Below, piece by piece: positions 14,616 through 36,345 of a stretch of DNA of 64,000 bases. The DNA lies in the NCBI GenBank assembly GCA_963702845.1, contig OY969763.1, forward strand, positions 4,800,001 to 4,864,000, given 5' to 3'. Each line of letters begins with the position of its first letter. Position 1 is the stretch's first letter. The position numbers and the translations under genes are program-made. The notes beneath the pieces were generated by a model. That model was not told where the DNA came from. It was given only the letters and a program-made list of their open reading frames with translations, and made no database searches. The DNA is from an uncultured Verrucomicrobiae bacterium. GTDB lineage: Bacteria > Verrucomicrobiota > Verrucomicrobiia > Limisphaerales > Palsa-1400.

Positions 14616-14643
14616 AAAAAGCCCGCTGTTTCCAGCGGGCTTT
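14616..14643 (-). terminator. Intrinsic terminator, the original host terminator of the tRNA-Met gene
   Basis: Stem GCCCGCTG/CAGCGGGC with T tract on the minus strand, directly after the duplicated tRNA 3' end. Confidence 0.85.
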
Positions 14644-14697
14644 CAATTGGTTGCGGGGCTGGGATTTGAACCCAGGACCTTCAGGTTATGAGCCTGA
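14643..14697. repeat. att site of element 1 (displaced tRNA-Met 3' portion)
   Basis: 55-bp exact direct repeat of 43654..43708. Confidence 0.95.
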
Positions 14698-14859
14698 ATT
14701 TAAAACGCGGTTTTGTTGACTTTCCTAGCTATTTAGCTGTTTTTGGTGCGATGTGTTTGTGGATTTGTTTGTTTTTTGCTTGCTGGTGTTCGCCTTTTTT
14801 CTGTATGGTTGTCAGCGTTACAAACGTAACGGGAAAACCAAATACACAGGAAAAAAGCT

Positions 14860-16290
14860 ATGCCTCTGGAATTTCGAAAGCAACGTGACGGTACTTTGCG
14901 CGATGTCTGGTTCGGTGCCTTTGAAGTGAACGGCAAACGTTCCGCCGTCAATCTCGGGGTGAAGATCGCGGGCGTTCCCCCACCCTCTCTCTCGCTCAAG
15001 GATCGGGGCGATACGGACTTTGAAGTGTCGCGCGCTAATGCGCTGTCGAAGTTGAATGGCATCGTGGATGAGGCGCGGTCGCAGCGCTCTTCGGAGCGGC
15101 TGGTGGAGAAGCTGTATGAGATTAAGACAGGCGAGCAGATTAAGTCGGTAAAGCTTTCGGACCTGGGCGCTGAGTGGGAGAAGATTCCGCGCAGGCGCAA
15201 ACCGGATGACCGCTACGCTTCGCAATGCAAGTCGCGGCTGGAGAAGTTTGCGACGTTCATTCGTGCGGAGAACTCCAAGGCTGACGAGATCGCGCATGTG
15301 ACGCGGACGACGGCGCGGGCGTTCCTGGATTCGGAAACCAAGCGCGGCGTCACAGCTAAGACGTGGAATGATTCGCTAGTGCTGCTGCGGGCGACGTTCC
15401 AACAGCTTATGCCGGCGGGGAGCATCAATCCGTTTTCCGGTATTCCAACGAAGGAGATTGAAACGGTTTTTCGCAAGCCGTTCACGCCGGAAGAACTCAA
15501 GGCGATCCTAAAGGCGGCCAAGGGCGATAAGTTTATCCGGCCGATTATCATTGCTGGCGTTTGCACGGCGATGCGGCGCGGCGATTGTTGTTTGCTGAAA
15601 GGGTCGGATGTGGATTTGAAAAACCGATTCATTTCGGTGAAAACGGCGAAGACGGGTGAGACGGTGAGCATTCCGATTTTTCCGGCGCTCTACGACGTTC
15701 TGAAGAAAGCGCTAAAGACCATCAAGGATCAGGCTGGATTCGTTTTCCCAAAGCAGGCGGCGATGTATACAGAGAATCCCGACGGCATTACGTGGCGGGT
15801 GCGCAAGGTTCTCGCCCTAGCTGGATTTAAGGACACGGAGAATGAAGATGAAGGGAAGGCAGAGACTGAGGATGAAAAGCCCGGTATTGGCAAGCTGGTG
15901 AAGGTGAACGGGGCTTTGGATGTGGCCAAGACAAACGGAAACGGCGCGGTGCATCGGGGCGAGATTCATGCGGAGCGCAATGGCGGGCTGCGTCGGGCAT
16001 CAGTGCGCGACTTCCATAGCTTCCGTGTGACGTGGGTCACGCTGGCGCTCACTGCGGGTGTGCCGCTGGAGCTAGTGCAAAAGGTGACAGGGCACAAAAC
16101 GACGGACATTGTTTTGAAACATTACTTTCAGCCAGGGCGCGAGGATTTCCGGAAGGCGTTGCAATCGGCGATGCCGAAGCTGCTGACGAATGGGAAGAAG
16201 TCGCCGAAAGAGAAGTTGCGCGAGTTGATCAACAAGTCAAAGGAAGAGGAGCTTAAAAAACAAATGTTGGCGGAGTGGGAGAAGCTGTAA
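14860..16290 (+). CDS. Tyrosine recombinase / phage integrase
   Basis: TAMRRGD, DFHSFR, TGHKT..VLKHY catalytic residues; next to att. Confidence 0.93.
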   Translation: MPLEFRKQRDGTLRDVWFGAFEVNGKRSAVNLGVKIAGVPPPSLSLKDRGDTDFEVSRANALSKLNGIVDEARSQRSSERLVEKLYEIKTGEQIKSVKLSDLGAEWEKIPRRRKPDDRYASQCKSRLEKFATFIRAENSKADEIAHVTRTTARAFLDSETKRGVTAKTWNDSLVLLRATFQQLMPAGSINPFSGIPTKEIETVFRKPFTPEELKAILKAAKGDKFIRPIIIAGVCTAMRRGDCCLLKGSDVDLKNRFISVKTAKTGETVSIPIFPALYDVLKKALKTIKDQAGFVFPKQAAMYTENPDGITWRVRKVLALAGFKDTENEDEGKAETEDEKPGIGKLVKVNGALDVAKTNGNGAVHRGEIHAERNGGLRRASVRDFHSFRVTWVTLALTAGVPLELVQKVTGHKTTDIVLKHYFQPGREDFRKALQSAMPKLLTNGKKSPKEKLRELINKSKEEELKKQMLAEWEKL

Positions 16291-17140: not shown

Positions 17141-17167
17141 GGTCCGTTCTCGCTTTATTATCGAAGC

Positions 17168-17504
17168 CCCCAACAACTAGCCCGGCCGGCAATGAGGACA
17201 GGTTTTGTGGTTAGCTTCTCCGAGGATTTATGTCGGTACAGAAAAAGACCGATGGCGCGTCAGTTGTGCGTTACTCGGGATTGCCCAGATTCCAAGTTAG
17301 CGACGGAACGGATCGCTTGCACGGTTGCCCAGCCTCGCCATCGGTAGCCGCGGCGATGCTCACACCAGCACGAAACGTTGTCCAGAAAGCCAATGTAGAT
17401 TTTGTGTTACGGGAATGTGACATTGATGTGACCCGTGGCTCAATGCGGTCGTTGCGTTTGTTAGCGGATTCCCCAACAACTAGCCGGTCCGGCAATGAGG
17501 ACAG
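17168..17504. repeat. 34-bp imperfect direct repeat pair (17168..17201 and 17471..17504)
   Basis: CCCCAACAACTAGCC..CCGGCAATGAGGACAG, 32/34 identical. Confidence 0.85.
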
Positions 17505-17516: not shown

Positions 17517-18601
17517 TTAATTTTGCCAGACGAAGCGGCGTTTTAGGTCATTCAGTTGGTTAAATCGTATGACTTTGTCGTGCTGGAGCCGACCAACAAC
17601 GATTCCGGGTGCTATCTGCAGACCCGCGGCAAATTGCGTGACCGCACGCGCAGTAAAATCCCGACGTGTCACAAATGACGTGTACTTCTCTTGAGGAATC
17701 AGGAACTCAGCGGCGAATTTGTTCGCGTCAGCTTCGGTATCGTCTCCATCCTTTAAGCCTTCGACGAACACCGTGTTTTTAACTTCCTGCAGGACATGAC
17801 GGCCTTCGTGAAAAACGGTAAACCAGAAGTGATCGTCGGATTTGTAAAGGAGGCTCACCTGAACGATTGCCTTGTCTTTCGTCAGCCAATAGGTAGCGCC
17901 GCTAACCTTTAATTTTTTTAGCTCCGGTGTGAAAACGAGTGCCACGCCTGCTTCGGCACAGAGCTGCCGCATTTGCGGTTGAAATTCGGCGGCAGACTTC
18001 GTTGTGAGCGAACGAATCTGATCAAGTGCCGATTTGAAGGCATCCGCGTTGAAAGGCTTTGTCTCAATTTTCTGAGCGTCCAACTCGCCCTTGCGCAACC
18101 AAGCCGAAACTATACCGAGCTCGTTGGCGGCGAGTTTCGATTTTCGGAATGAGACAGAAACTTTCTCCCAATAAGTCTGCCAGTTGGCAGGCGAGGAAAC
18201 CCCATAATACGAGAGGGCATTGTGTACAGAACCTGCGAGGGTGTTTGACGCGTCAACCCAACCCTTTTGAACCATTTCCTTATATGGCAAGCGCTTCAAC
18301 CATTCGACTTCTGAAGCGAATTGGGTTTCCTGTGCCTTGCGAGCAAGGAACTCTTGATAGTTCGCGTCAAGGTTTAGCCAGAATGCTGCCGGAGTGCCTA
18401 AGGCGAGTTCAAGCTTTACCGCTGTTTCGGCAGTAATTGGGGCAACGCCTTGGATGATTTGGTTCACCGTTTTCCGGCTTAAGCCGACGCGGTCAGCTAG
18501 ATCCATCTGGGTCATGCCAAGGCACTCGAGCGTTTCCGCCAAGGTGTCCCCTGGGGGGTCCGGTCTTGCGGGTCGTATCGAATTGGTGCGTTCTTAGCCA
18601 T
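17517..18601 (-). CDS. higA: HigA-type XRE HTH fused to ImmA/IrrE (M78) metallopeptidase; apparent 1-bp deletion in the G run at 18553-18558
   Basis: PGDTLAETLE..MTQMDLADR HTH, FTVFHEGRH, EADANKFAAEFL; ATG 18601 overlaps the higB end. Confidence 0.85.
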
Positions 18602-18932
18602 GATAGTCAGTTATTTCGTTGATCATTACCGCTGTAACTTTCGACCAATCGAGTCCACCGTCGTCTTTACGTGGTATGGGGTCGTTGGCGGGCTCGAACA
18701 GCAAACGGTAGGGATGATCTAGGTCTACAGCCAACTGGCCTTTCAAATTGCCACTTAGCTCGTGACAACGTGGGCCAGGTATTTTCCGAATCATCTCCAA
18801 GTTCGTTAGCGCCACAAACTCGTCTAGTCTGCGGCGGAGCAGCTTGCCTCGCCTGTCTCCCCATTCCCGCTTCGCATCGTCCAGAGTTTCACAATGCTTA
18901 GCGAATTTCGATTTGCGAAAATATATATCCAC
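18594..18932 (-). CDS. higB: HigB/RelE-family toxin (killer-suppression type)
   Basis: RCHELSGNLKGQLAVDLDHPYRLLFEP...EITDYH. Confidence 0.88.
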   Translation of the reverse strand: MDIYFRKSKFAKHCETLDDAKREWGDRRGKLLRRRLDEFVALTNLEMIRKIPGPRCHELSGNLKGQLAVDLDHPYRLLFEPANDPIPRKDDGGLDWSKVTAVMINEITDYHG

Positions 18933-19104: not shown

Positions 19105-19767
19105 TTATTCTGCCGTCGGTGGGTTTGGCTTTTGGTTGAGTGACCTTTGGACGGCTTCCTTAGCGCGTTTCATCTGCGCCTTATATTCGGGCGATTGCAA
19201 AATAGCGTTAAATTTTGCAAGCTTCTCCGCCGCTTCGGGGTCAACCGGAGGTACAATTCTTGAAAATTCGGACGACACCGTTCGAAGTTTTTCCTCATTC
19301 GGGAGGCCGTCGAATCTATAGAATTTGGTGTAGTCGTTTGTATAAACGAGATAGTGGAGCTTTATGGCTGCAGTTGGGATTGGGCCAACGTGGCAGACTT
19401 CCACGTATGGAATAACGTTTCCTTTGGTCCCGATTTTGTTGTCTGGATAGGGAATCAACTTCCCCGGCAGCTTATCGCGATCGAGTCCAAGGATTACTGT
19501 CATTGGGTTCGCACGACCGAGGAACTGGGTCCATTTTACTGACTCTCCGATGATAAGGTTTTCAGGTTCTGATTGAAAATCGAAGAGAGAGACAGCACGC
19601 AGTTCTTGGCAAGCGTAGCATCCGCCCAATTTGCTCCTTCCGTTATTGGGTTTGATAAAACCGTCGGTGCGGATTTGTCGGTATTCTTCCGGGCTAGTGC
19701 AATGCCACAGGTTGGAGCACCGTAGCTGTCGAAACAATGGGTGAGTTGATTCTAGCTCGCACCTCAT
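19105..19767 (-). CDS. Hypothetical protein, possibly ADP-ribosyltransferase-like fold
   Basis: LWHCTS..I..DGFIKP, VSLFD, EVCHVGPIP; ATGA overlap with the upstream gene. Confidence 0.5.
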   Translation of the reverse strand: MRCELESTHPLFRQLRCSNLWHCTSPEEYRQIRTDGFIKPNNGRSKLGGCYACQELRAVSLFDFQSEPENLIIGESVKWTQFLGRANPMTVILGLDRDKLPGKLIPYPDNKIGTKGNVIPYVEVCHVGPIPTAAIKLHYLVYTNDYTKFYRFDGLPNEEKLRTVSSEFSRIVPPVDPEAAEKLAKFNAILQSPEYKAQMKRAKEAVQRSLNQKPNPPTAE

Positions 19768-20455
19768 TTTCGTAAAGCGTCGAGGGGGACCCAGTCGCCG
19801 GGGGCGCGTTGGTATTGCCAAAATTGCCAACCGTTGCACGTTCGACGCTTGTATGCGTGGGCTCCTGCAAGCGATGGGGACGTGAAGTGCTTTCCGTCAT
19901 ACCAATCAGCCCAGTCTTGCGCACGTAAGCTCTGTGCGTTTTGCCCTTGTGCCGCGCGCGGATTGTCATGGCACCACTTATGTAGTCGGCAAGGATGGGT
20001 TTTCGCCCGTCGGTTTCGACTGCTTTGACCGGACGCGGCGCACGTTTTGACGTCGTGCCCATTAGTTCCTGCATTTCCAATTCCCATGAAGATTTGACGT
20101 CGCCTTTGAATTTGCGATGGAGGTCTTCAGATTTGGCGAACTTGCCCTTCTGCAAGTTGCCTTTGGTTGTAATGATGCGCAGCAGCAATGCTTCAAGTTC
20201 TCGGAGGTGACTGTCGCCGATGGTGAAGTAAACGCTAAAGCGGTCCCACGATTGGCCGTGTCGATCTTTGAGATGGTGGCCTAACCGTGAACGCAGATTT
20301 GAAGCCAATCCGACGTAATAGAGTTTGTCGCGGCGGTAGAGGGCGTAAACACCGTGGCGTTTGCGGACGTAATCGCGGATGATGTGTTGGTATTTTTCCA
20401 ACCCATTGCGCGAGATGTTTTCAAGATGCTGGCAAACGAGAGGCGTCCGTTTCAT
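19764..20455 (-). CDS. GIY-YIG nuclease fused to RAMA/DUF4357-like domain, apparent frameshift near 19903
   Basis: GVYALY..LYYVGLA.NLRSRL..H in ORF 19694..20650; YDGKHFTSPSLAG...NGWQFW in ORF 19764..20087. Confidence 0.75.
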
Positions 20456-20845
20456 AGTTGTCCGTGGTCCGAAGCGAGGTTGCGAGAACAGCCTTAAAAA
20501 CACCAGAGGAATTGCGCGCGAACGCCAGATGCTATGACACGAAAGAAGTTGGTTGCGTTCCCGATTATGTGGAACTACAGCGCCACGTCCACTCCAATCG
20601 TTCTCGCTGAAAACAGTCGCCGAAACTGCGAAATGGTGTGCAAGGAGCACAATCGGGAGAAAGGAGGAAATAGAGGCTTGGAAGTTGCAGCAAAAAAGCG
20701 GCGGTGAATAACTTTTGACTCGGAAAGTGGTTTTGTTTACACCGTTGTCTCAAGCCAACCGAAAAGCCCCTGTGGGAGCGTTTTCTCACGCCAGCGGGTG
20801 ACGGGTGGATGCGTATCAACCATAACGCAACAGAAGGAAAAAAGC

Positions 20846-21632
20846 TTGGGACATGAGCAAATAGGCAGACTTCGGAAATCCGCGAGCTGGAACAAGGTCG
20901 TTTCGCTTATTACGAACGGGGCGGACGTGGCGAAGGTGGCGGAGGCTACGAGTCAAGCGCTGGAAAAGTCGCTGCTCTATGTGCAGAATGATGCCGGGTT
21001 CAAAGAAGCGGTCCATTTAATGACGCAGCTTGCCGTTGCTGGAACCAAGAAAGATCCCGCTGAACACCTCGCATCGGTCGGTATTGTGCTTTCACCTAAA
21101 ACTTCAGTGGCCGATGTGGTGGCGGCGGTGACGGAGGCTTTGGATCAGAACGTAGATGCTACGGGAAAGAGGTCTGATTTCAGCGAATGCGCGCATCGGG
21201 CGCTGATTGGCACTCTTAGCCAGTATCTGAGCAACAATCAAACGACGCTGTTCGAATCCAGCCACGAAGATGTGAGTTCCGCCCTCAATTCTCTACGAAA
21301 AGAAAAAGCGTTCGGAGAGTTTTCGAAATCCTTTTTTGGGAAATTGACGAACGAATGCATGGATTACTTCCTTTCGAAAACGCTGGCGACGCATGTCGGA
21401 GAAGGGCAGCAATTTGCCACGATGAACCAGATGGCGCAGTTCGAGGCGGGCTTATCTAAACATTGTAGCGAGGTGGCGGTGATCGTGGAGAAGGTACAGC
21501 AAGGAATGGTTTTCAAAGAACCTGCGTGAAGGGAAAGGTGATATTACGAAAGATGTCGCTGAAGGGTTTGGCTGGTATGGCGTGAAAAAGATTCAAGATG
21601 CATTGAAGGAAAGGCCGAGCGATGGAAAATGA
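20846..21632 (+). CDS. QatB-like helical partner of the QueC-family protein, apparent +1 frameshift near 21494
   Basis: TTG start with AAGGA upstream gives MGHEQIGRL..W.KVV.LI; shifted frame continues YSKEWFSK..GFGWYGVKKI to TGA overlapping the next ATG. Confidence 0.6.
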
Positions 21633-23670
21633 GCATATCATTGTGTGCGGCGGCCAACAGCCACCGGCTGGGATTGGCAAAAAGTTTCTGGCGCTCAATC
21701 TCTGGGGTGGGAAGGGCGTAGCGAATATCAAATTTCACATAGAAGATATTCATTCGCGGCTTCTTCAGAATGTGCCGGAGCGGTTCGTGGACCTGCTGGA
21801 GATCGCGGCTTATCTCTATTGTTTTGACCAGGGATTTGCGCGCGTGAGGATGGATGTGGAGAGTTTTGGGTCGGCGTGGCGGCGAAGGTTCAAAGTATAT
21901 GTGCCGGTGCGCGACCCGGACTTTTGGAATGATGCGGAGGTGAAGAGAACGCTGACGGATACGTTGAATTTTCTTTCCGATGAATTTTTCGATTTTCGAT
22001 TTTCCAAAGCGTATAAGCCGCCGGAGTTACAGGAATATCTCGATTTCAAGGAGAGCGCGGGCGCTGAGCAAACAGCCGAACAAGTAATGATGTACTCGGG
22101 CGGGCTGGATTCATTGGCAGGTGCAATCGACGAAATCATAACGCAAAAACGGCAAGTCGTTTTGGTCAGTCACAGGTCGACGCCGAAATTGCTCGGAGTG
22201 CATCGGCGCTTGGAAGCGATGATTGTGGAAAAGGCGGGACAGAAAAGGCCGGTGCAGATGAACGTCCGCGTCAGCAAGAAGATCGTTTTAGATGAAGAGG
22301 ATCATACGCAACGGTCCCGGTCGTTCTTATTTGGGTCCTTGGGAGCGACGGTTGCGACTGTCCTGGGTTTGAAAAACCTCCGGTTTTATGAGAATGGCGT
22401 CTTGAGCATGAATTTGCCGATGACTGCGCAGCTCGTGGGTGCCCGCGCGACACGCACGACGCATCCGCGGGTGATTCGAGGGTTTTCCAGACTGTTCTCG
22501 TTGGTGGCGGGTGAAACATTCACGGTGGAAAATCCGTTTATCTGGAATACGAAGGGAGAAGTAATACGGAAAATTGTCGACGCAGGCTGTGACGCGATGA
22601 TTGAAGCGTCCACGAGCTGCCCACACACACGGCAAGCAAGCAAAGAGCAGACGCATTGCGGTGCGTGTTCGCAGTGCATTGATCGGCGCTTTGGAGTTAT
22701 AGCAGCGGAAGCGGAAGAATTTGATCCTCCTTCGATTTATCGAATGGATGTTTTTACGGAGTCGCGCTCTAAGGAAGAGGATAAACTGATGGTTGCGGCG
22801 TATTTGGAACGTGCTAATCAGGTTGCGAAATTGGGAAACGCAAATGACTTCATGTCGAAGTACACGGAACTGGGACGGGTGATCCGGTGCATGGATGGCG
22901 CGCCTGATAGCGTGGCTGGCCGCATCTTCGAGTTGTATAAGCGGCATGCGACAGAGGTCAACGAGACAGTCGATAAGATGATGGGAAAGTATCGGAGGGA
23001 AATACGGGAGCGCACGTTGCCTGGAGATTGTCTCTTGCGATTGGTTTATGAGTCTGGATCGGTGACTTCGTTGCCGGTACAAACAGCAGAGCCGATGGAC
23101 AAAACTATTGTTGGCGCAGAGACGAAGACTGCGGCGTTTGTGTTTCGAAAGGCTGGCAGTGTGTGGGATGTGGTTTTCGACGGTGGCAGTTTATTCCACA
23201 TCGATGACGGTTTCGGGGCGAAATATTTGGACTATTTACTGCACCGTCCGAACGAAGTGATTAACGCATTTGACTTGGAAAAGGCTATCCGACCGGCAAA
23301 AGGAAATGCGCGGGCCAAAGATTCGGCACAAACGGCTGTGGACCAACAAACCAAACGAGAGGCTAAGGAAGAACTCCCTCATTTGGAAGCGGAGTTGGAG
23401 ACTGCCGAAGGCGAGGGAGATACTGCGAAGGTAGAACGGTTGAGAGGCGAAATAGCTAAGGTGAAGTGCGTCATCGGCAATGAGAATTTATTGAACGGGG
23501 ACGCTGGCGAGCGCGCGCGCGACAACGTGAGAAAAGCTATCAATAAGGTTGTCCAAAAAATGCGTAAGGGCTCAAAAGAGGAGCAGGCGTTTGGTCAGCA
23601 TATTGGGCAGTTCGTTTCCCTCGGATACGAGGTCTGTTACAATCAACCGAACGAAAATAGTTGGGCGTAA
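21622..23670 (+). CDS. QueC-family (QatC-like) PP-loop protein with C-terminal putative DNA-binding domain
   Basis: SGGLDS, QRSRSFLF, YENG, TRTTHP, NPF..TKGE, SC..HCG.CSQC; C-terminal W.V.FDG..YL.YLL..P..ERARDNVRKAI. Confidence 0.85.
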   Translation: MENEHIIVCGGQQPPAGIGKKFLALNLWGGKGVANIKFHIEDIHSRLLQNVPERFVDLLEIAAYLYCFDQGFARVRMDVESFGSAWRRRFKVYVPVRDPDFWNDAEVKRTLTDTLNFLSDEFFDFRFSKAYKPPELQEYLDFKESAGAEQTAEQVMMYSGGLDSLAGAIDEIITQKRQVVLVSHRSTPKLLGVHRRLEAMIVEKAGQKRPVQMNVRVSKKIVLDEEDHTQRSRSFLFGSLGATVATVLGLKNLRFYENGVLSMNLPMTAQLVGARATRTTHPRVIRGFSRLFSLVAGETFTVENPFIWNTKGEVIRKIVDAGCDAMIEASTSCPHTRQASKEQTHCGACSQCIDRRFGVIAAEAEEFDPPSIYRMDVFTESRSKEEDKLMVAAYLERANQVAKLGNANDFMSKYTELGRVIRCMDGAPDSVAGRIFELYKRHATEVNETVDKMMGKYRREIRERTLPGDCLLRLVYESGSVTSLPVQTAEPMDKTIVGAETKTAAFVFRKAGSVWDVVFDGGSLFHIDDGFGAKYLDYLLHRPNEVINAFDLEKAIRPAKGNARAKDSAQTAVDQQTKREAKEELPHLEAELETAEGEGDTAKVERLRGEIAKVKCVIGNENLLNGDAGERARDNVRKAINKVVQKMRKGSKEEQAFGQHIGQFVSLGYEVCYNQPNENSWA

Positions 23671-23862
23671 ATCGGTAGTTTTTTGATTTGGGAACGCAAA
23701 GTTCCCAATTGGGAATCGTTAATTCCCGCCATTTGGGCGTAAGCCTGAATGGCGGTTTTTTTTGGACTCGTTGGTCGAGCCCTTCGTTGACTCCGCGATT
23801 CAGGTAATGGCCTGAGTCGCGTTTTTTGTGCGCGTCTCTGGCGACGAAGAAGACGAAGAACT

Positions 23863-24066
23863 ATGAGAACGCTAAGAAACAAAGCGAAAGTGATGCGCGG
23901 CAAACGGGGGCAGCTCGGGTGGACCCAGTTCGAACTGGCGCGACGAGCTGGTTGTTCGGAATCGCAAATCGCCAAGATCGAGACGGGCCGGATCGCTCCT
24001 GAACCCTGGCTTCGAGATGCCATCGCGCATGCATTAAACATTCAACCGTTCGAGGTGGGCTTGTGA
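23863..24066 (+). CDS. XRE-family HTH (Cro-like) regulator
   Basis: LGWTQFELARRAGCSESQIAKIETG. Confidence 0.85.
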   Translation: MRTLRNKAKVMRGKRGQLGWTQFELARRAGCSESQIAKIETGRIAPEPWLRDAIAHALNIQPFEVGL

Positions 24067-24359
24067 TTACTGCGAACCCTAATGAACGGTTGATTCGGTT
24101 TCTCCAGGCTACGCCGGAGCAGCAAGCGATGGTGGATCGGATTCTCGACGGCCACGCACCCGTGGCACCTCCGCCAATCTCCGGGCCGTTGCTGTTGCCG
24201 ATGGGCAAGGCTTGTGAGTTGCTTGGGGTTTCGCGACCTACTCTCTGGCGCATGCTCAATGCAAAAAAGCTCACACGGGTTGAGGTGTTACCGAAGACGT
24301 ATCGGGTGAGGCGATCGGAAATTCTGGAGTTGGCGAATGGAAAGGACGGCGGCCAATGA
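24063..24359 (+). CDS. Excisionase-like HTH protein
   Basis: ACELLGVSRPTLWRML...YRVRRSEI. Confidence 0.8.
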   Translation: MITANPNERLIRFLQATPEQQAMVDRILDGHAPVAPPPISGPLLLPMGKACELLGVSRPTLWRMLNAKKLTRVEVLPKTYRVRRSEILELANGKDGGQ

Positions 24360-24769
24360 ACCAGCAACGTAAACAGAAGGTAACGGAGGGATCTAAGAAG
24401 ATTGCGGATTGCGGATTGCAGAGTGCGGATTCCAAACAAAAGGTCGCGAAGGAAACGAAGGCAAACCTAACGTTTGACGGCAAGCGGGGCTTGCATCCAC
24501 CTCGATCTCAGCGACCCGGCGGGCCGGTGAAAACGAATGCAACTGCGCAAAGCGATTGGGATGGGGCGCTGAAATCTTGGCAGCTTGCGGAAAAAATTCA
24601 GGTGAGTGAGCGGATGATTCGCAAGCTGGTGGCACAGAAGAAAATTCCGGTGATGCGGTTGGGGCGGTTGCTTCGGTTTGATTACGACGCAGTGCAAAAG
24701 GCGCTGACTGTCGCGGAAAATAAGAATGGGGTTGATGGGACTATTGCGACGAATGGAGGCGGCCAGTGA
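24356..24769 (+). CDS. Second excisionase-like HTH protein
   Basis: LAEKIQVSERMIRKLV..KIPVMRLGRLLRFD. Confidence 0.7.
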   Translation: MNQQRKQKVTEGSKKIADCGLQSADSKQKVAKETKANLTFDGKRGLHPPRSQRPGGPVKTNATAQSDWDGALKSWQLAEKIQVSERMIRKLVAQKKIPVMRLGRLLRFDYDAVQKALTVAENKNGVDGTIATNGGGQ

Positions 24770-25791
24770 TCAGCGTTCTGGATCGGGCTCTGCGTTATGT
24801 CGCGAAGTGTGAGCCCGCAATTTCCGGGCAAGGTGGGCATGATCGCACCTTTCATGTGGCGGCTGTCGCCGTTCATGGGTTCGCCCTGGATGATGCCGAT
24901 GCGCTGGCGGTTTTGCGTGAGTATAATCAACGGTGTGTGCCGCCATGGTCGGAAACGGAGTTGGTGCATAAGGTTCGGTCGACGGCGACGGCGCAACATG
25001 CGTTAGCACGCGGCCACCTTTTAAAGGAACACGACAGGGGAACCGATTTCAAATCTCAGATTTCAGATTTGAAAGTGTCCAGACCTGCTTCGGCAAATTT
25101 GGTCAGTCCGCGAGCGGCGGCGGAGCGGTTTCTAAACGGGTTTCGCTGTCATGAATCGGATTTGACTGCGGAAAGCCCGGTGGCGTTGGATGGAGAGCCG
25201 CGTTTCGACGGCGTTCTGGCACTGGCGAATTTGTATAAACCGGATGAGCGAATCAATTTTGTAACGGAGTTTGAGGAAACGACGGTTAAGGGCGAAATCA
25301 AGGCGCGGCCGGTCGGCAAAGGTCTGACGCTGACGAGGGATGAAGCGATGCGGCGTTTTGCGGAGGTCGGAACTGACAGCAGCCGCGCGGGTGGATGGCT
25401 GCGGATGAATCCGGTGGACGGGTACGGCATCGCGGATGCGAATGTGGCGGCGTTTCGGTTCGCCCTGCTGGAAAGCGATGCGCTTCCGATGGATTTGCAG
25501 GTGTCGCTCATTGCGCGATTGCCGTTACCGGTCTCTTTGGTGGTGAGCAGCGGCGGTCGCTCGGTGCATGCGTGGGTGAGAATTGATGCCGGCGATATTG
25601 CGGAGTATCGGGCGACGGTTTCGAAGATGCTCAAGATTCTGGCGCGGCTTGGGGTGGATGAGAAAAATAAAAATCCTTCAAGGCTTTCGCGTTTGCCGGG
25701 AGCGAAACGGGAGATCGGCGGAGTCGGTGACGGGTGGCAAAAGATTCTGTATCTAAATCCGAATCCAGCGGAGAGGAGGATTTGCCCATGA
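24766..25791 (+). CDS. DNA primase (PriCT-like N-terminus plus RepB/AEP-type primase domain)
   Basis: AISGQGGHD..NQRCVPPWSE.EL; LLESD, SGGRSVHAW, NPSRLSRLPG. Confidence 0.75.
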   Translation: MISVLDRALRYVAKCEPAISGQGGHDRTFHVAAVAVHGFALDDADALAVLREYNQRCVPPWSETELVHKVRSTATAQHALARGHLLKEHDRGTDFKSQISDLKVSRPASANLVSPRAAAERFLNGFRCHESDLTAESPVALDGEPRFDGVLALANLYKPDERINFVTEFEETTVKGEIKARPVGKGLTLTRDEAMRRFAEVGTDSSRAGGWLRMNPVDGYGIADANVAAFRFALLESDALPMDLQVSLIARLPLPVSLVVSSGGRSVHAWVRIDAGDIAEYRATVSKMLKILARLGVDEKNKNPSRLSRLPGAKREIGGVGDGWQKILYLNPNPAERRICP

Positions 25792-26930
25792 CAAGCCTCG
25801 ATGTGTTGGAAAAGGAGGTTATGGAGGCGTCAACGCCAGCGAATGAGCAACCGCCGGTCGCGCGGAAGTTGAGCGAGCTGGTGCTGCCCGACATCAATGA
25901 CCCGGATGAGCTTTTGAAACATCGGTTCCTCGGGCGTGGCGGTGGGATGTTGATGGTTGGGCCGACGGGAATCGGGAAAAGTTCGCTGGGGATGCAGTTG
26001 ATGGTGCTTTGGGCGCTCGGGCGAGAGGCGTTCGGGATAAAACCATCCAAGCCATTGAAGTCGCTGTTGGTGCAAGCCGAGAACGATGACGGGGACCTGG
26101 CAGAAATGAGAGACGGGGTGATTCGCGGTCTGGGCTTGAATGCCGATGAAACGAAACGTGCTTTAGACAATGTGATTGTGGTGAGGGAAGATTCGCGGAC
26201 AAGCAGCGGTTTCGCGACGGGCGTGCTGCGGCCGTTATTGGAGACGCATCGGCCCGATTTGCTTTGGATTGATCCGGCGCTGGCTTATCTCGGCGGGGAA
26301 GCGAGTTCGCAAAAGGATGTAGGCGGGTTTTTGCGGAATTTGCTGAACCCGCTTTTGCGCGAGTTCAATTGCGGATGTGTGGTGGTGCATCACACGAATA
26401 AGCCTTCGTCGGGACGTGAAAAGTCGGAGTGGCAGGGAAGCGATTTTGCGTATCTGGGCAGCGGGTCCATTGAATGGGCGGGTTGGGCGCGTGGAGTGAT
26501 TGCGTTGCGGAGCGTTGGGTCGCATTCGGTCTTCGAACTGCGGGCGGCGAAACGCGGAGCACGGCTGCGATGGAAGGAATCCGATGGTGTAACGGCGAGT
26601 TTTGCCAAATTGATTGCGCACAGCCGCGAGCCTGGCGTGATTTGCTGGCGTGAAGCGCAAGCGGACGAGATTCCGGCCGACGCGAAGCGAAAGAATGTTT
26701 TCACCAAGGAGGATTTATTGCCGCACGTGCCTACTGATAAAGCGATTTTGAAAGAGGCGCTGAGGAGCAAAGCGAACGGCGCGGGGATCGCGATAAACAA
26801 AATCAATGGGCTGATCGCGGAGTTGGTGGATGACGGCAGGCTTTTTATTTGGCGCATCAAACGCACGGGAACGAACCCGCAATTGCAGATTGCACGGTTT
26901 CGCCAGCCAGTGGAGGAATTGATAAGATGA
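25788..26930 (+). CDS. AAA_25/RepA-like replicative helicase
   Basis: Walker A GPTGIGKS, QAEND, WIDP, VHHTNK, GS. Confidence 0.85.
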   Translation: MTSLDVLEKEVMEASTPANEQPPVARKLSELVLPDINDPDELLKHRFLGRGGGMLMVGPTGIGKSSLGMQLMVLWALGREAFGIKPSKPLKSLLVQAENDDGDLAEMRDGVIRGLGLNADETKRALDNVIVVREDSRTSSGFATGVLRPLLETHRPDLLWIDPALAYLGGEASSQKDVGGFLRNLLNPLLREFNCGCVVVHHTNKPSSGREKSEWQGSDFAYLGSGSIEWAGWARGVIALRSVGSHSVFELRAAKRGARLRWKESDGVTASFAKLIAHSREPGVICWREAQADEIPADAKRKNVFTKEDLLPHVPTDKAILKEALRSKANGAGIAINKINGLIAELVDDGRLFIWRIKRTGTNPQLQIARFRQPVEELIR

Positions 26931-28030: not shown

Positions 28031-28182
28031 AATACTGAGAAAGAACCAAAAGACAGGCAGAAGGGAAGGAGCACCCTCTTAGGAGTCGGGTGGCCTTCCT
28101 TCTTCTGCCGTTGGACTGCGGAGGTGTTAGCACACGGCCACCACTTGCACGCAGCGATCAACACGCCAGAAATAAAGCATTT

Positions 28183-28812
28183 ATGAGCCGACCATTTGAA
28201 CAACTGCCGACGCCGAGTGTTAGCACACGGACACCTTCGCTTTCTTTCGAGCAGCAACCGAAAGAAAGTGCTAAGGCGTTTGCGGCGTTTGGATTGTATC
28301 TGAGTATGGGGCCGGAGCGGTCGCTGGAATTGGTGGGGCGAAAGTTAGGCAAGAGTAAGGGGCAAATGGAAAAGTGGTCGCGGCGTTTTGAATGGACTTC
28401 GAGGGTGCAGGCGCATGGGGCGCACCTGGCTATTGTGGAGCGCGAAGCGATCGAGGCGACGGCGCGAAGCAAGGCGGCGGAGTGGGAAGGGCGTGAGCAG
28501 AAGTTGCGAGAAACGGAATGGGCGATGCATGAGCGGGCGATTGCTGCCGCGCAACGGGGTCTCGATGCCTACATGGCGCGTGAAAAGGTTTATGCGAATC
28601 TTTCGGACATCGCGCGGATGCTGGAGGTCGCGAGCAAGCTTGGGCGGCTGGCGACGGGGCTTGGGACGAACGGCGAGCGCATGAACGGTGACGAGTTGCC
28701 GACGGTGCGCGTCGAGGTCACGGTCGCACTGGAGAAGATTTATGGCGAGCCGTTGCCGGGTGAAATTATCGACGTCGAGGCGGTGCGAACACTGCCGGAG
28801 GGAACGCAATGA
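28183..28812 (+). CDS. Putative terminase small subunit
   Basis: ES.KAFAAF..Y..MGPERSL..V..WS....W..R pattern; directly upstream of and overlapping TerL. Confidence 0.65.
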   Translation: MSRPFEQLPTPSVSTRTPSLSFEQQPKESAKAFAAFGLYLSMGPERSLELVGRKLGKSKGQMEKWSRRFEWTSRVQAHGAHLAIVEREAIEATARSKAAEWEGREQKLRETEWAMHERAIAAAQRGLDAYMAREKVYANLSDIARMLEVASKLGRLATGLGTNGERMNGDELPTVRVEVTVALEKIYGEPLPGEIIDVEAVRTLPEGTQ

Positions 28813-30260
28813 CGCCGTGGGAAAGGTATTTTCTGATCGGGCGGCGCGCGGGTTGTCCGAAGGATCAGATGCAACGGTTTGAGCGGGCGGACGTCGTCTT
28901 GCAGGAGCGTCAGCTTGCGGCCAGCGCGGCGGCGCGACTTTGCGACGGTGCCGATGGGCCGACGGCGATCGGCTACGGCGGCGCACGTGGTGGTGGCAAG
29001 TCGCATTGGTTGCTTGGACAGATGGGCGTCGATGATTGTCAGCGTGTGCCAGGGTTGAAATGTTTGCTGCTGCGCAAGGTCGGCAAGGCGAACCTTGAGC
29101 ACTTCGAGGATCTGCGGCGAAAGTTGTTCACGAAACTCGGTCACGAGTTCTCGGCGTTTCGGGGAATCCTGACGTTCAACAATGGATCGCGCATCATCGC
29201 TGGGCATTTCCAGAACGAGAAGGACATCGACGCGTATCTCGGGCTTGAATACGACGTTATCGGCATAGAAGAGGCGACGACGTTGACGGCGCGCAAATAC
29301 CAGGACATCACGACGTGTTGTCGGACGAGCAAACCGAATTGGCGGCCGCGTATCTATTCGACGACGAATCCGGGCGGCGTCGGTCACGGCTGGTATCGAA
29401 CGAGGTTCGTTCTCCCGTTCTTGAACAAGGCGGAAACGGAAACGAGGTTTGTGGCGGCGCGTGTGACTGACAACCGGTGGAACAACCCGGAGTATATCCG
29501 GGTGCTGCAGGGTCTGAGCGGTTGGCAGCGTCGCGCGTGGCTGGATGGCGACTGGGACATCGCGGCGGGGCAGTTCTTCACGACGTTGCGGCGCGATGTG
29601 CATGTGGTTGAGGATTTCGATGACAGGCGCGCGCGGGAATGGTTCTGTGCGTTAGACTATGGATTTGCGCATTACACTGTGGTGTTGCTCGGCTGCACGG
29701 ATTGTGATGGGAACGTTTTCGTCGTGGATGAACACGCGGAACGGCTCTGGTTGCCGCAACGTCATGCGGCGGCAATCAAGGCGATGGTGCAACGGCACAA
29801 AACGGTTGCGAATCGCGCCGGAAGTTCCGGTTCCCATTTGCAAATTGCGGATTTGAAACGGTTCGTTGCTGGTGCGGATGTGTTCTCGCGTCAGAGCGAT
29901 GGCACGACGATTGCCGCGCAGTATGCGAAGCACGGAATCACGCTGCGGTGCGCGAACACAGACCGCATCAACGGCTGGGCTGAGATTCTGCATCGTCTCG
30001 GCGACACGAACGTCGTGCTCGCACCGATCGTCGGTCTCGCAGTGGGAGGAACGAAGCCTACGCTTTTCATTCACAAACGATGCGGGCGGCTGATTGAGAC
30101 GCTGCCAGCGCTGCAACATGATCCCCATCGCCCTGAGGATGTGTTGAAGGTCGACGCCGACGATGATGGCGTCGGCGGCGATGATGCGGCGGATGCGTTG
30201 CGTTACCTGGTGGCGACGAAAGCACGAAGTGTCGTCGCGAGGAAGTTGAGCGGGTTTTGA
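28809..30260 (+). CDS. Terminase large subunit
   Basis: YGGARGGGKS, IEEA, TTNPGGVGHGW, LDGDWD, LDYG, DDAADALRY. Confidence 0.93.
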   Translation: MTPWERYFLIGRRAGCPKDQMQRFERADVVLQERQLAASAAARLCDGADGPTAIGYGGARGGGKSHWLLGQMGVDDCQRVPGLKCLLLRKVGKANLEHFEDLRRKLFTKLGHEFSAFRGILTFNNGSRIIAGHFQNEKDIDAYLGLEYDVIGIEEATTLTARKYQDITTCCRTSKPNWRPRIYSTTNPGGVGHGWYRTRFVLPFLNKAETETRFVAARVTDNRWNNPEYIRVLQGLSGWQRRAWLDGDWDIAAGQFFTTLRRDVHVVEDFDDRRAREWFCALDYGFAHYTVVLLGCTDCDGNVFVVDEHAERLWLPQRHAAAIKAMVQRHKTVANRAGSSGSHLQIADLKRFVAGADVFSRQSDGTTIAAQYAKHGITLRCANTDRINGWAEILHRLGDTNVVLAPIVGLAVGGTKPTLFIHKRCGRLIETLPALQHDPHRPEDVLKVDADDDGVGGDDAADALRYLVATKARSVVARKLSGF

Positions 30261-30387
30261 GAAAGCGAAAACTCCGGGTGCGGCCGCAAAGCAATGGAAT
30301 ACCGGCCTGGTGTTTCGGGGAAAACAGTTAAAAATAATACCAAACGGATTCGGGTTGTTCCTTTACCGGAAGCGGTGAGTGTTCTGA

Positions 30388-30642
30388 ATGATGACAAAAA
30401 CGCGTGTTGAGGACCGGGAAGGGCCAGTGGGAAAGATTTTTGAAAAGCAGGCTTCAAAAATTCCGTCGGATATTTTCATGTGGGCGGCCGGTGGCTCAAT
30501 CGTTGCATCGCTAGCGCTCAAATTGGCCAAGCGCGATCATGAGGCGCTGTTCGTGGGACAATGGGCTCCAACATTTCTTGTGTTGGGATTGTTCAACAAA
30601 TTATTGAAGGTGGCGGGTAGTGAGCACGCAGAAAACGCGTAA
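30388..30642 (+). CDS. Small conserved-type membrane protein (host-like cargo)
   Basis: KIPSD.F.WAA..S..ASL.L....ALFVGQWAPTFL.LG.NKL. Confidence 0.7.
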   Translation: MMTKTRVEDREGPVGKIFEKQASKIPSDIFMWAAGGSIVASLALKLAKRDHEALFVGQWAPTFLVLGLFNKLLKVAGSEHAENA

Positions 30643-31657
30643 GGGCTAACGCGTCCCATAATTAAAGTCCCAAGCGACCCCGCCTAACTTCCTCTTCGGG
30701 AAGCTGCGGAGTGGAGGCGTGGCGTGAAGAATGCAAATTCAGTTGGCGCGATCGCTGCGGCTGGCTCGGCGGGGAAGGAGACAGCCATTGTCAGCGAGCG
30801 TGCCAAGTGAATTTCCCTGCGTGGCATAAGGCAATATTGTGCGACAAATCCGGTTCGCATCAGTGGGTCTCGCGGGTCCCGCTGGTGCGATGCGTTATTT
30901 CGCAACGGATTTTCTGCACAATGTTTCTTATGTCTTAGCAGTGGTTCGCAAGGCAGACGCCCAGACGCGCAGGTGCGAGCCGCACTGGCCACATCGATCA
31001 TCGTAGCGTCTGCCGGTTCTTCATGACATGCTGGAACGGAGCTTAGTAATTTCTCGCGGGGTCGCATCAACACGGTTCGCGGTGGTCGCGGCTCTCTGAC
31101 GTGTGCGCGGAAGTCGAGGATGTCGCCGTCGTTCGTGCGGGTGTTAGCACACGGCCACGTGGGGCGAACGGGAAGGCGATACCGCAGGCTTTTGCGCAGA
31201 GGTCAGACTAAAGATGGGAGGCCTGCACATGACTGCGACGCGGCGAAGGTCAGCGAGCTTGCGAGCGTTTCCGTAGCTAGTCGCAGTGATGTGCTGGCCT
31301 TGGGGAATGGCCAGTCTCCACAGATTTGAAACGTCGGAACGGAGCGGAAATGGAGGCGTGATGGAAGCGGAGTTGTTCGCTGACACGCGCCGCAATGTAG
31401 CGAAGTGGAGCGTTTTTAATTTGTGGAGTCTGGCGTGCTTGCGCACGGCCACGTTCCGCACGAGGACGTGCGTGGGGCTGCGCAAGGGTGAGGACATTGA
31501 CGGTGGCTTGCCACGATGGAGCGGCGCAGCAAGCGACAATCGAGTCGATGGCATCACGCTTGTGCAGCGGGGGATGGTTCCGTTGTATTATTTCGTCGTT
31601 TGAAAAGAATGACGATTTGCAATAGCCCAAAAATACGATTCTCCAAGTGGGTAGGGA

Positions 31658-31828
31658 CTAATTGGATTTTCGGTAGGAGCGAACCAGGTCCCAAAGCAAA
31701 CCGGTTACGCCAATCGCCCATAGGCACCAGATCCAAGCAGGTATTCCTTTGGAGAAACCAGAAGCAACAACTCCTGCTATTATTAGCATGACGCAAGAAT
31801 CCCCAATGGTGCTAGTGCGTTTTTTCAT
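31658..31828 (-). CDS. 56-aa two-TM protein absent from the ORF track
   Basis: Manual translation MKKRTSTIGDSCVMLIIAGVVASGFSKGIPAWIWCLWAIGVTGLLWDLVRSYRKSN. Confidence 0.5.
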   Translation of the reverse strand: MKKRTSTIGDSCVMLIIAGVVASGFSKGIPAWIWCLWAIGVTGLLWDLVRSYRKSN

Positions 31829-32586
31829 AAGTTTTTTATGGTCTGAAACGACTGAAATCCTGACAGCCGTTATAGGGCGGCATTGTTTGACACGATATAA
31901 CTAATCGTAAAATGGAGCAATTGCATTTGGCGAACCAACTTCCTAACACGGCTAAGCGGTGGTTTGTCAGCGCGTGCCAGAGCAAGCTTGCGTGCGGGGT
32001 TGGTGGGTGTGTTTGGGTTGTCTTTGTCTTTGGGGCGAGCCGGGAGGCGAGGCGGTTGTCTTTACGGGCTCGCGTTGGCGCGCGTTCCCTAGCGGGGGAG
32101 GGGGCGAAGTGTTGCTAGCTATTCCGAGCGCGCCTGCCCCCTCCCCCAGCAGCCCGCGTCGACCGCGAATGCGGAACTGTAAACGTGGTCTGGGGGAGGG
32201 GGCGCGGGGGCGGGAGCGGGGAGCGCGCGAGGGGGGCAATGCGCCGGTGCGCGAGGGGGAAAATGGGCGGGTGCCGCCGGCGTGCGGCGGGGAAATCAAG
32301 GCGGCGAGAGACGCTGGATTATATGAGCAAAGCGAACCGATGTTGTCTTTGTAGCGCTGTCGGACGGTTGAGGCGTTTGATTCGGTTGGAGGGCTAACTG
32401 ATGCCGAAGGTTCGTACCAATTGAGCGGGTGGCGGCTGGTCTGCTCTCACTGACGTCGAATTGGAATGCGCAGAACAGATGCCACGCGCGCAACTGACTT
32501 TGTCTTTGTGGGATGTTGGATAACCCGAAGCGGCGGTTAACTTGATCTGGCTGGTTCGGCCTCACAGTTTATCCCGATGCGGTTGA

Positions 32587-32853
32587 TCATGCTGCCTGGA
32601 GTGCTCGTGAGTAACTACGCATCGTCACGAACCACATCCCAAGCCCCCAAATAAAGCCGCCAGCCAGGCAAAGTCCAACAATGAAATACGGCGGCAACGC
32701 CTCCTCTTTGTGCGACACGTGTTCATAGATGGTGCCAAAAACTGCCATAGGAACACCCCAACCGAGGACGCCCCGCAGCAACACAAAACGCCAAATGCCT
32801 CGTTCCTTGATTCTTTGCCATCTCGCTAATCGCAACGTTCGGATATCGCTCAT
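32587..32853 (-). CDS. Cassette gene: small two-TM protein
   Basis: RW..IKE.G..RFVL.RGVLGWG; ATG 2 bp after GTTAGGC. Confidence 0.75.
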   Translation of the reverse strand: MSDIRTLRLARWQRIKERGIWRFVLLRGVLGWGVPMAVFGTIYEHVSHKEEALPPYFIVGLCLAGGFIWGLGMWFVTMRSYSRALQAA

Positions 32854-32855
32854 AC

Positions 32856-32957
32856 GCCTAACGCCGAGGTCAGCGACGGGAGCCAGCCGCCCCTGACGTC
32901 TGATTTGTCTCCTGAACCGAACGGCTGGCTCCCGTTCGCTGCACCGTCTTATTCGCC
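32856..32957 (-). other. Integron attC site (102 bp)
   Basis: Minus strand GGCGAAT..CAGCGAACGGGAGCCAGCCG..loop..CGGCTGGCTCCCGTCGCTG..GTTAGGC, a long hairpin with unpaired bases. Confidence 0.85.
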
Positions 32958-33610
32958 ATATTCTCGACCTGCTTCCACAGTCTCTCCCTCGCGTAACCCT
33001 CGATAAGACTGTACGACGAGCCCTTCCATTCCAATGTTTTCCAAGCCGACGATAAAAGGATCTGGTGGAATGCGTTACTGGCAGTGGTTAAAGTGGGTTG
33101 CACGTAAGGTTTCGTGCGGAAGACTCCATTTGACGCACAATAAACAAGATAGCTACCCGCCCGCTCTGCCAAGCCGCCCAGATTATAGCCGAGCGTCATC
33201 GACAACGGTACACCGTTGGTGATGGCAAAGGGCAGGTTGGGCCAAGTCTTAGGAGGCATCGACTCGTAAGGGACTCCGCTGGGGGCACCAAGGCGTGGTT
33301 CACGTAGGGGCAGCGACGGGTTCTTTTCCACGAAAACCAGCCGGCATAAAAGACAGATGCGTTCGTTCGCCTTCTCCTGCTCATCGATTGACTCCCACTT
33401 TTTGCCCGCCAGTTCTTTGAGATGGTCAAAAGCGGAGTCTCGTCCCGCCTTTATGAACGTGTTCGCGCACTCGGCGGCTATATCGGGTCGGAACTCCGAT
33501 GCCGCGATTTCTGGGAACCGCGACACCGCGCTTTCCATGTCGTTGGTTGCCGCGTTCACCGAAATAACCAGCAGTGCAACAAACGCGATTGCTTTTGCGA
33601 ATAGTGTCAT
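32870..33610 (-). CDS. Cassette gene: secreted hypothetical protein, reading into its attC
   Basis: Signal peptide; ATG directly after GTTCGCG; C-terminal ANKTVQRTGASR is translated attC. Confidence 0.75.
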   Translation of the reverse strand: MTLFAKAIAFVALLVISVNAATNDMESAVSRFPEIAASEFRPDIAAECANTFIKAGRDSAFDHLKELAGKKWESIDEQEKANERICLLCRLVFVEKNPSLPLREPRLGAPSGVPYESMPPKTWPNLPFAITNGVPLSMTLGYNLGGLAERAGSYLVYCASNGVFRTKPYVQPTLTTASNAFHQILLSSAWKTLEWKGSSYSLIEGYARERLWKQVENMANKTVQRTGASRSVQETNQTSGAAGSRR

Positions 33611-33853
33611 CGCGAACTAGTGATTATGCGACGGGGTGTCGCGGTCATTTTGATATACGAACGGTTGGTTCATATTGGTTGAGGAGATTATTGTTATGCT
33701 GGCGCTGCGAAGCAAGCGCAACACAACGCGCTCGCGAGCACGGCGACGACATACCGGAGATTCGCGATTGAAGTGGAGTGCGTAGCGGAGGGTCGACGGC
33801 ACTGGGCGCGTGGCAAAAATACCGCAAGCTTTATTGCAGACCACTGAGGCTCT

Positions 33854-34294
33854 CTATTCGTAGCGGCCCTCTGTTGTGTCCGTATACCAGAACTCCGGCT
33901 GCGCCCAAACATACCAGTGATCACCCACTGGGCGAAAACGCCGGACATACTGAGGGAAATGGTTGGTGGTCGGATTGTAGGCAATACCGTAATAGTCGTG
34001 GTGGAACTCGTCACCGAGGAGGACATAAAGGATGCCCCCGCTGGTCTTTGCTTGAAATTGCTTGCCACTCCATTTCTTCCAAGGAAGCCCTGTGATATAT
34101 GTCTTCGGCTCCAAATCCTCCCAATCAAGCGTTTCCTCTTTGTTAGTGAACATGTCCCACCCATTAGTCGCTATGAAACTCGACACAGAGGCAAGTGCGT
34201 TCGAGCCTTTAATGTCGGGTCTTGGTGTTCGCCTCCATTTCGGCGTACATCCGACAAGCAGGATCGCGATGCATAGAAACATGGAACGCGACAT
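33854..34294 (-). CDS. Putative lipoprotein, possibly cassette-derived
   Basis: LLVGC lipobox; ATTAGGC at 34306-34300 just upstream. Confidence 0.65.
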   Translation of the reverse strand: MSRSMFLCIAILLVGCTPKWRRTPRPDIKGSNALASVSSFIATNGWDMFTNKEETLDWEDLEPKTYITGLPWKKWSGKQFQAKTSGGILYVLLGDEFHHDYYGIAYNPTTNHFPQYVRRFRPVGDHWYVWAQPEFWYTDTTEGRYE

Positions 34295-36153: not shown

Positions 36154-36196
36154 GTTTCAGGAACCGATGTCAGATGAACGGCCTTGCGCCGGATTG

Positions 36197-36328: not shown

Positions 36329-36345
36329 GGCAAGACGCGCATCGC

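Follow-up and report, generated by a model that had tools for sequence, protein, structure and literature searches.

What does a pair of genes related to qatB and qatC do directly before the early genes of a prophage, at the place where a repressor gene would be expected? The question is raised by a stretch of 64,000 nucleotides (hereafter, the window; positions 4,800,001 to 4,864,000 of contig OY969763.1, GenBank assembly GCA_963702845.1) from an uncultured Verrucomicrobiae bacterium, which carries a prophage-like element with a QatB-like partner gene, a QatC-like enzyme gene and, directly after them, Cro-like, excisionase-like and primase genes, as a preliminary description of this DNA had it. 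The answer favoured in the present study, with a probability of about one in two, is that the early operon is controlled by the C-terminal domain of the enzyme (designated W) through binding to two palindromes, and that QatBC tagging of the partner is the gating input. The parts of this answer differ in firmness: W very probably binds the palindromes at 23690–23727, control of the operon is more likely to be positive than negative, and gating of W by QatBC is given a slight preference. Three structure papers of 2026, in the parts available, leave unsettled which group QatC adds to QatB, its trigger and its output; the clade described below is a natural QatBC without the N-terminal tail of QatB, and its predicted output is a DNA-binding domain for which a candidate operator is named.

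The QatC-like enzyme and its QatB-like partner

The 682-aa protein encoded at 21622–23670 contains all five QueC-family motifs listed in the preliminary description (SGGLDS at residue 159, RSRSFLF at 231, ENG at 257, TRTTHP at 277 and C-x12-CGxCxxCxxRR at 333), and its catalytic motifs are all intact; the set fits the QatC-type cluster-2 motif list in the available part of PMC13329287. The PADLOC QatC model matches the protein with an E-value of 1.9e-55, the solved QatC chains 9vlk and 9zee are matched as well, and the NCBIfam QatC equivalog scores 211.7 bits, below its cut-off of 280. A Foldseek search with the AlphaFold model (mean pLDDT 79) found chain 9y01_B of the QatB–QatC core (E 2.8e-17, TMt 0.74); the wide VIA library listed no QatC for this model. 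The tests for a canonical QueC failed in length (682 aa vs ~220), in the motif TRTTHP where YPDC is expected and in the TIGR00364 score (21 bits, cut-off 150). The base-binding pair is Thr/Thr instead of Tyr/Asp, a replacement also given for the substrate pocket of QatC in the available part of PMC13279940. Sequence and model together identify the product as a QatC-type enzyme.

The partner gene begins with TTG-GGA-CAT at 20846 behind a Shine–Dalgarno-like sequence, which gives the N-terminus Met-Gly-His (MGH) that had been proposed, and Gly-His at positions 2–3 is invariant, both in the 75 of 75 non-redundant loci with the start covered and in 38/38 aligned homologues. The model of an intact homologue (L003, pLDDT 83.5) aligns by VIA with QatB chain 9y01_A (Z 12.7, rmsd 3.8, 209/215 residues aligned, 9% identity; next unrelated row Z 6.0), with partner residue 7 aligned to QatB residue 64, leaving the long N-terminal tail missing; hhalign gives an E-value of 1.2e-4. 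The structural match was found solely by VIA re-alignment of Foldseek's 1000 best chains; the top Foldseek rows and the wide VIA library did not recover QatB from the partner model. Among sequence profiles, PADLOC and the PDB sequences gave no match and NCBIfam matched one of 39 members (E 0.023). On the models, the upstream partner has the QatB fold. Two loci have unusual forms. L219 (6559–8402) may connect the MGH and MGTS groups: there a short, 187-aa partner starting MGTS, weakly similar to the MGH family (hhalign E-value 1e-4), neighbours a QatC-like gene of 428 aa. In L071 (51–2543) a single 831-aa ORF (open reading frame), either a natural fusion or a deletion, contains the first ~139 partner residues followed by enzyme and W.

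As assembled, the partner ORF stops at 21529 after 227 aa, 92 nt short of the enzyme start; the 45 C-terminal residues expected from homologues are encoded in a different frame (21495–21632), which overlaps the enzyme ATG by 11 nt, the commonest arrangement among homologues. Translational coupling, as originally claimed, thus holds for the family but not for the window as it stands. Relative to homologues, the gene has one extra base near 21493–21494. One explanation is that the window copy is a decaying pseudogene pair, with the partner truly broken and W alone, or nothing, still working, a question separate from the choice among mechanisms. Besides the extra base, the TTG start, a Gln at position 5 where 35/38 homologues have Arg, an Arg at a second position where 35/38 have Pro, and the lack of tail-gene matches in the element speak for it. 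It is nevertheless improbable: the part after the shift still shows 37–53% identity to homologues, with the 11-nt overlap retained, the catalytic motifs are intact, and the genome, although a single 6.03-Mb contig, is just 89.76% complete. Furthermore, when this assembly was compared with 191 ORFs taken from a 400-kb portion of another genome in the order, 6 of the 52 conserved chromosomal genes with a near-full-length match here were split across frames (7 events, 21,935 codons), because of which an assembly error is the most likely cause, judging from the sequences; gene breaks in this assembly deserve distrust. A programmed frameshift was rejected, since just one non-redundant homologous locus is split (L081), at a different place.

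The W domain, its palindromes and the MGH clade

The approximately 180 extra C-terminal residues of the enzyme, described before as DNA-binding in type, model as an OmpR/PhoB-like winged-helix fold with a helical hairpin (residues ~575–620) inserted before the recognition helix. Nine of the 50 best VIA rows for W are OmpR/PhoB DNA-binding domains, covering most of each target domain, with CssR the best (Z 8.1, rmsd 2.6, 86/88 aligned) and GlnR at Z 8.0; Z-scores of 7.0–8.1 are middling, yet all point to one family. No Pfam family covers W and the ESM Atlas gave unnamed clusters only; a W profile matches 15,779 clusters (50% identity). An unannotated regulator domain with more than 15,000 sequence clusters is thus named here, and a sequence code is given for the sites that it probably recognizes. 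In 150/150 best relatives, W ends at most 12 residues from the C-terminus; a QatC core precedes it in 21 of these relatives, 10 others fall into clusters with AAA_16/TPR ATPases, a Pfam receiver domain was matched in one (P0127) and most N-terminal parts are unannotated. Further fusions of W are with reverse transcriptase and a CHC2 zinc finger, with a cyclase plus AAA_16 and with a CBS domain (P0163, P0191, P0234, P0205). DNA binding at this locus would come from W, because canonical QatC gave no binding in an electrophoretic mobility shift assay (EMSA; PMC13376578, available part).

Downstream of the enzyme gene lie two 17-bp palindromes and two terminator-like hairpins (23690–23827), which the preliminary description did not remark on. 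The palindromes begin 19 nt past the stop codon of the enzyme–W gene, are unique in the window and form the sole GGGA-N9-TCCC pair in the genome; the folding z-score of the leader region is −6.67. Pairs were scored in the 150 nt after each anchor gene, at a threshold of at least 17 of 20; anchors with less than 150 nt downstream, four partial-W rows and the core row of locus L077 are omitted from the tallies. A pair at this threshold follows 34/57 enzyme–W fusions, 9/10 W-only rows (one of them the split-off W of L077) and the single triple fusion, and was found after 0/30 enzymes without W and in 0/2040 dinucleotide shuffles. Of 20 fusions lacking a downstream pair, half have one elsewhere in the locus, and 8 of these 10 displaced pairs stand ~4 kb off, before an excisionase-like gene, the first of an early operon that runs divergently. 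The position of the pair is therefore tied to the operon, and the end of the gene does not determine it. That the palindromes are a mere terminator of the gene was rejected, as pairs occur away from the gene in other loci.

When 43 W domains were placed in a tree, that of the window clustered with four W-only proteins (support 98/89), all of which have GGGA/GAGA..CCC pairs, and CGGA-type pairs (99/99) and GCTAC-type pairs (97/91) mark other clades; in the core tree, the window enzyme stands instead among loci with CGGA-type pairs or other tails. Since the W tree matches the pair type and the enzyme tree does not, the motif tracks W and not the enzyme. In viral DNA, out-of-phase spacing (26–27 bp) gave 0 matches against 29 in phase, so the phasing of the palindromes matters. 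A CC..GAAG hairpin is conserved after palindrome 2 in 51 aligned regions. The regulator proposal of the preliminary description gains direct comparative support from the palindromes, and neither a loss of Gly2 among partner homologues nor a tail without a DNA-binding type of fold, two observations that would have refuted it, was made.

Several repeat patterns were recorded alongside. Many phages, in L221–L249 and the W-less members of L250–L329, have arrays of 4–11 alternating half-sites with the same 21–22-bp phasing and no detectable W; these arrays frequently stand where an operon begins or follow a gene for integrase or terminase. In L187, L189, L191 and L194, where the enzyme has a different winged-helix-like tail, three TGTCAC/G repeats occur downstream at offsets 0, +22 and +76, a candidate second operator code from the sequence. 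Repeats for non-W tails were not above shuffles in 10/20 clade loci and 8/10 canonical controls; the remaining two controls scored 1 and 8 of 100.

The loci come from a family search in which 2974 of 8000 candidate proteins gave a score. The best 120 of these are mostly 680–710 aa long, and their source names, on which the host ranges rest, include Verrucomicrobiota, Ralstonia, Geobacter and Hydrogenophaga; a scan of named genomes with a single protein gave one locus, and 20/401 genomes of the phylum have a match. The best 80 of 557 metagenome stretches and the best 80 of 171 viral stretches were kept, and thinning at 85% identity left 108 of 194 anchors. A quick tree search with a thin outgroup, using 95 enzyme cores, set 85 members of the MGH clade apart from 10 canonical-type QatC (SH-aLRT 97). 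Among loci with at least 1.2 kb downstream, qatA/qatD clusters adjoin 0/73 clade loci vs 7/9 canonical ones; one of the three following genes belongs to an early operon in 54/73 clade loci, 8/10 W-only rows and 0/9 canonical loci, where the early-operon cluster set was defined from annotations after the data had been seen. As the loci were chosen by best match and are related, these counts and those of the palindrome pairs are not independent. CD-NTase families were not among the scanned neighbours. In the window itself, neither qatA (KAP NTPase) nor qatD (TatD) was matched among the scanned ORFs, and the KAP ATPase, TatD, CD-NTase and Dpd families had no match among those of the element, in agreement with the preliminary description.

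The composition of these loci bears on another explanation, in which QatBC is defence cargo that protects the lysogen and was fused to a resident regulator, W, by hotspot insertion, the two functions being independent. It draws on restriction-modification, McrBC, HEPN and toxin–antitoxin genes often lying directly beside the pair, on enzyme-free W proteins (L103–L107 among them) that occupy the same slot before the early operon, and on locus L196, where the enzyme tail is a DpnII/MboI nuclease. Engineered QatBC alone also suffices against lambda-vir (PMC13279940, available part), so that a defence unit of these two genes is in itself nothing new. This explanation is rather unlikely all the same. 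The fusions are in frame, and other members of the clade have a different tail at this position, usually helix-turn-helix- or winged-helix-like by eye; near-identical cores bear unrelated ones (L024 and L051 share 319/469 core residues, L167 and L108 406/470), which is difficult to account for unless the link is under selection. No core without any tail was found among the examined MGH-clade loci, contig-truncated ones excepted, and qatA/qatD are absent beside the clade loci. L196 (3072–5713), with its MGH partner, is on Leptospira noguchii plasmid NZ_CP091938.1; a partner looking like that of L196 occurs at L379:1492–2265, in a genome of the order of the window.

A second explanation makes the fusion protein a substitute for CI, which would repress the early promoter through two operators, confer immunity and be relieved by tagging of the partner. 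The absence of a classic CI noted earlier stands in part: no S24-type repressor was matched among the element ORFs scanned, but an XRE + IrrE protein (17517–18569), by its sequence the sole other candidate repressor seen, is present. With their tandem arrangement, the 17-bp palindromes resemble lambdoid operators, and one betaproteobacterial-type group has gene pair and early operon in divergent orientation, which is the arrangement of cI. However, the gene is upstream of the operon and co-directional with it in most loci, the window included (there with the Cro-like gene), and the 682-aa protein lacks S24 peptidase and XRE helix-turn-helix domains. A promoter to repress was not found either, with no sigma-70 consensus on the + strand of 20400–24100 and no conserved −10 box in the 51 aligned regions, and 10/73 loci have, before the pair, another gene for a DNA-binding protein of LexA type. 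OmpR-type and MalT-type proteins are mostly activators, and W has the fold of the former and ATPase fusions like those of the latter. Replacement of CI is, on balance, quite improbable.

The prophage element and its surroundings

The element is ~29.0 kb long and bounded by a 61-nt direct repeat at 14637 and 43648, the copies being 97% identical (Table 1); an Rfam scan of 14000–44000 matched the tRNA alone. Scanning of its ORFs revealed a head module and no tail family, and by sequence it may be either a helper-dependent element with head genes only or a decayed phage. Within 28090–43509, unannotated cargo separates terL from portal and portal from scaffold. Among close relatives, the same element was found in none, and any partner homologue in 1/60. 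The GIY-YIG gene that diverges from the pair has a homologue upstream of the qatBC-like pair in L108 as well.

Repeats are frequent in and near the element. A 19-nt motif (GGTGTTAGCACACGGCCAC-like) has seven copies in it (24999, 28123, 28216, 31140, 31434, 39145 and 39304), several near cargo boundaries, and a related pattern has 14 matches genome-wide. Repeats resembling TGTGTTTGTGGAT, at 14752–14776 and 43506–43546, just inside both attachment sites, are possibly arm-type sites of the integrase. A 48-nt direct repeat (17154–17201 and 17457–17504, 303 nt apart) lies just past the 3' end of the HigA-like gene. A second island of ~7.2 kb with lower GC content is situated between 47360–47407 and 54581–54628, its boundaries being a 48-nt repeat of the 3' end of tRNA-Arg.

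Table 1. Coordinates of the features of the element and the locus (positions in the window).
Feature	Position	Strand	Basis or remark
Left attachment-site repeat	14637–14697	none	copy of the 3' part of tRNA-Met
Tyrosine integrase	14860–16290	+	PF00589 E 7.6e-15; phrog_1
XRE + IrrE-peptidase protein, HigA-like	17517–18569	-	HTH_3, Peptidase_M78, TIGR02607
HigB-like toxin of a bacterial toxin–antitoxin pair	18594–18932	-	PF05015 below cut-off; phrog_3066
GIY-YIG nuclease-like cargo gene	19694–20461	-	PF01541; divergent from the qatB-like/qatC-like pair
Shine–Dalgarno-like AAGGA	20834–20838	+	7 nt before TTG
qatB-like gene, M-G-H start	20846–21632	+	~261 codons in homologues; frameshifted near 21493–21494 in the assembly
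qatC-like PP-loop enzyme (residues ~1–480) fused to W domain	21622–23670	+	PADLOC, PDB chains, Foldseek
W domain, residues 505–677	23134–23652	+	OmpR/PhoB-like winged helix, inserted helical hairpin
17-bp palindrome 1, GGGAAC-N5-GTTCCC	23690–23706	none	predicted W site
17-bp palindrome 2, GGGAAT-N5-ATTCCC	23711–23727	none	21 bp after palindrome 1
Terminator-like hairpin + T run	23726–23763	+	begins at the end of palindrome 2
Second terminator-like hairpin	23794–23827	+	early-operon leader; hairpin prediction
Early operon	23863–26930	+	family matches to HTH_3, HTH_17, primase, AAA_25
Cro-like HTH_3 gene	23863–24066	+	first gene of the early operon
Excisionase-like HTH_17 genes	24063–24359, 24356–24769	+	early operon
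Primase gene	24766–25791	+	early operon
AAA_25 gene	25734–26930	+	early operon
Head module interleaved with cargo	28090–43509	+	terS, terL, portal (34504), scaffold (39032), major head protein (39963), head–tail adaptor (42886)
Right attachment-site repeat	43648–43708	none	61-nt repeat in tRNA-Met (43659–43735)

Proposed mechanism and comparison with known systems

In the proposed mechanism, Met1 of the partner would be removed and Gly2 would enter the PP-loop site of the enzyme, by analogy with QatB; an adenylated small molecule, not necessarily a deazaguanine, would then be joined to Gly2. W dimers would sit on both palindromes, on one face of the helix, and their binding would most likely switch the operon on, through activation or by letting transcription read through the terminators in the leader; infection or stress would set the tagging of the partner, and this in turn would decide whether W acts. 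The chemistry is inferred from QatB and QatC, in which Gly2 of QatB enters the QatC active site and the G2D substitution abolishes defence (PMC13279940 and PMC13376578, available parts). The preliminary description counted attachment of a deazaguanine nucleotide to the glycine as established, which was an overstatement: Cap9 adds a nucleobase, QatC activity could not be reconstituted in vitro (PMC13279940, PMC13639016), and the modified peptide was seen at a low level only, in peptide-level liquid chromatography–tandem mass spectrometry (PMC13639016). In the available parts of these papers, deazaguanylation by QatC is weakly shown.

A number of points weigh against this mechanism, together with the middling Z-scores of W and the two limits of the counts mentioned above. 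The partner is without the 30–90-residue tail of QatB, which bears on the predicted entry of Gly2 into the active site. Engineered QatBC without a DNA-binding domain already blocks phage (PMC13279940, available part), the nuclease tail of L196 points to defence, and W-only proteins in the same slot, with the same palindromes, indicate that W needs no enzyme. Trans_reg_C was not among the 25 listed of 78 weak Pfam families for 25 W members. The palindromes also occur without W: in 29 viral loci with the exact GGGAA pair there was no W within 3.5 kb, and none anywhere in the 24 records searched, 10 of them at least 90% complete, many GGGAA-pair records being arrays with more than four half-sites. 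W or QatBC was found in 27/108 GCTAC-pair loci (28 of which spanned just ~640 bp), and 50 further W-less GCTAC-pair records gave no W, with a positive control of 5/5. The architecture is used beyond W, either by another factor or by W relatives outside the profile; that the palindromes always accompany W was rejected on these loci.

If W is indeed gated by QatBC, prophages, head-only elements included, would have a new way to time excision. More tentative, and somewhat doubtful at present, is a class-wide version, in which QatBC tagging would be the sensor of a one-component transcription switch in a widespread class of prophage- and satellite-like elements. The enzyme would be combined with interchangeable DNA-binding domains that each have an operator of their own, and excision and replication would be switched on when infection or stress is sensed. 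On this version an enzyme of defence would have been recruited for induction, where other prophages use CI cleaved with RecA, and canonical QatBC would be suggested to be a sensor and not an effector.

Among known systems, the pair works like the QatB–QatC core (9y01/9y02, 9vlk, 9zee) but is not a member of qatABCD. The window enzyme shares the QatC fold and the motifs SGGxDS, RxRxxxF, ExG, TxTHP and P-x4-TK and the zinc cysteines, and the helical partner directly upstream shares the QatB fold and the invariant Gly2. Unlike qatABCD, the clade has neither qatA nor qatD, and the pair heads a prophage early operon beside matching palindromes; the partner starts with MGH and not MGTS, lacks the tail of QatB and is ~9% identical to it, and the enzyme is 25–34% identical to QatC, below the NCBIfam cut-off, and is fused to an exchangeable tail of DNA-binding type. 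In the available part of PMC13329287, QatC forms one cluster in which about one third of members lie beside qatA/qatD, with no mention of a fused form; the literature search found no description of the MGH clade, although the neighbourhood table of that paper and published QatB alignments could list such proteins. With Cap9–CdnD of type IV CBASS (9nto; cyclic oligonucleotide-based antiphage signalling system), the pair has in common a QueC-family PP-loop enzyme and the proposed chemistry on an N-terminal glycine; in contrast to that system, there is no CD-NTase or effector here, the partner fold is unrelated, and Cap9 (~185 aa) has a Tyr/Asp base-binding pair where the window enzyme has Thr/Thr.

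W follows the strand–helix–helix–recognition helix–wing topology of OmpR/PhoB domains (CssR 7cx5, GlnR 8hml, KdpE 4kfc) and, like them, is a C-terminal output domain that also occurs behind a receiver domain; it differs in its ~10% identity, the inserted hairpin of ~50 residues and predicted sites that are inverted repeats instead of 11-bp direct repeats. The nearest functional analogue, and an analogue only, is FseA of ICEMlSym R7A (PMC10359603, available part), likewise a mobile-element regulator with an inverted repeat before an excisionase operon and a 22-bp geometry; unlike W, FseA is a DUF2285 protein with one repeat beside the −35 box, and it is gated by the antiactivator QseM and not by an enzyme.

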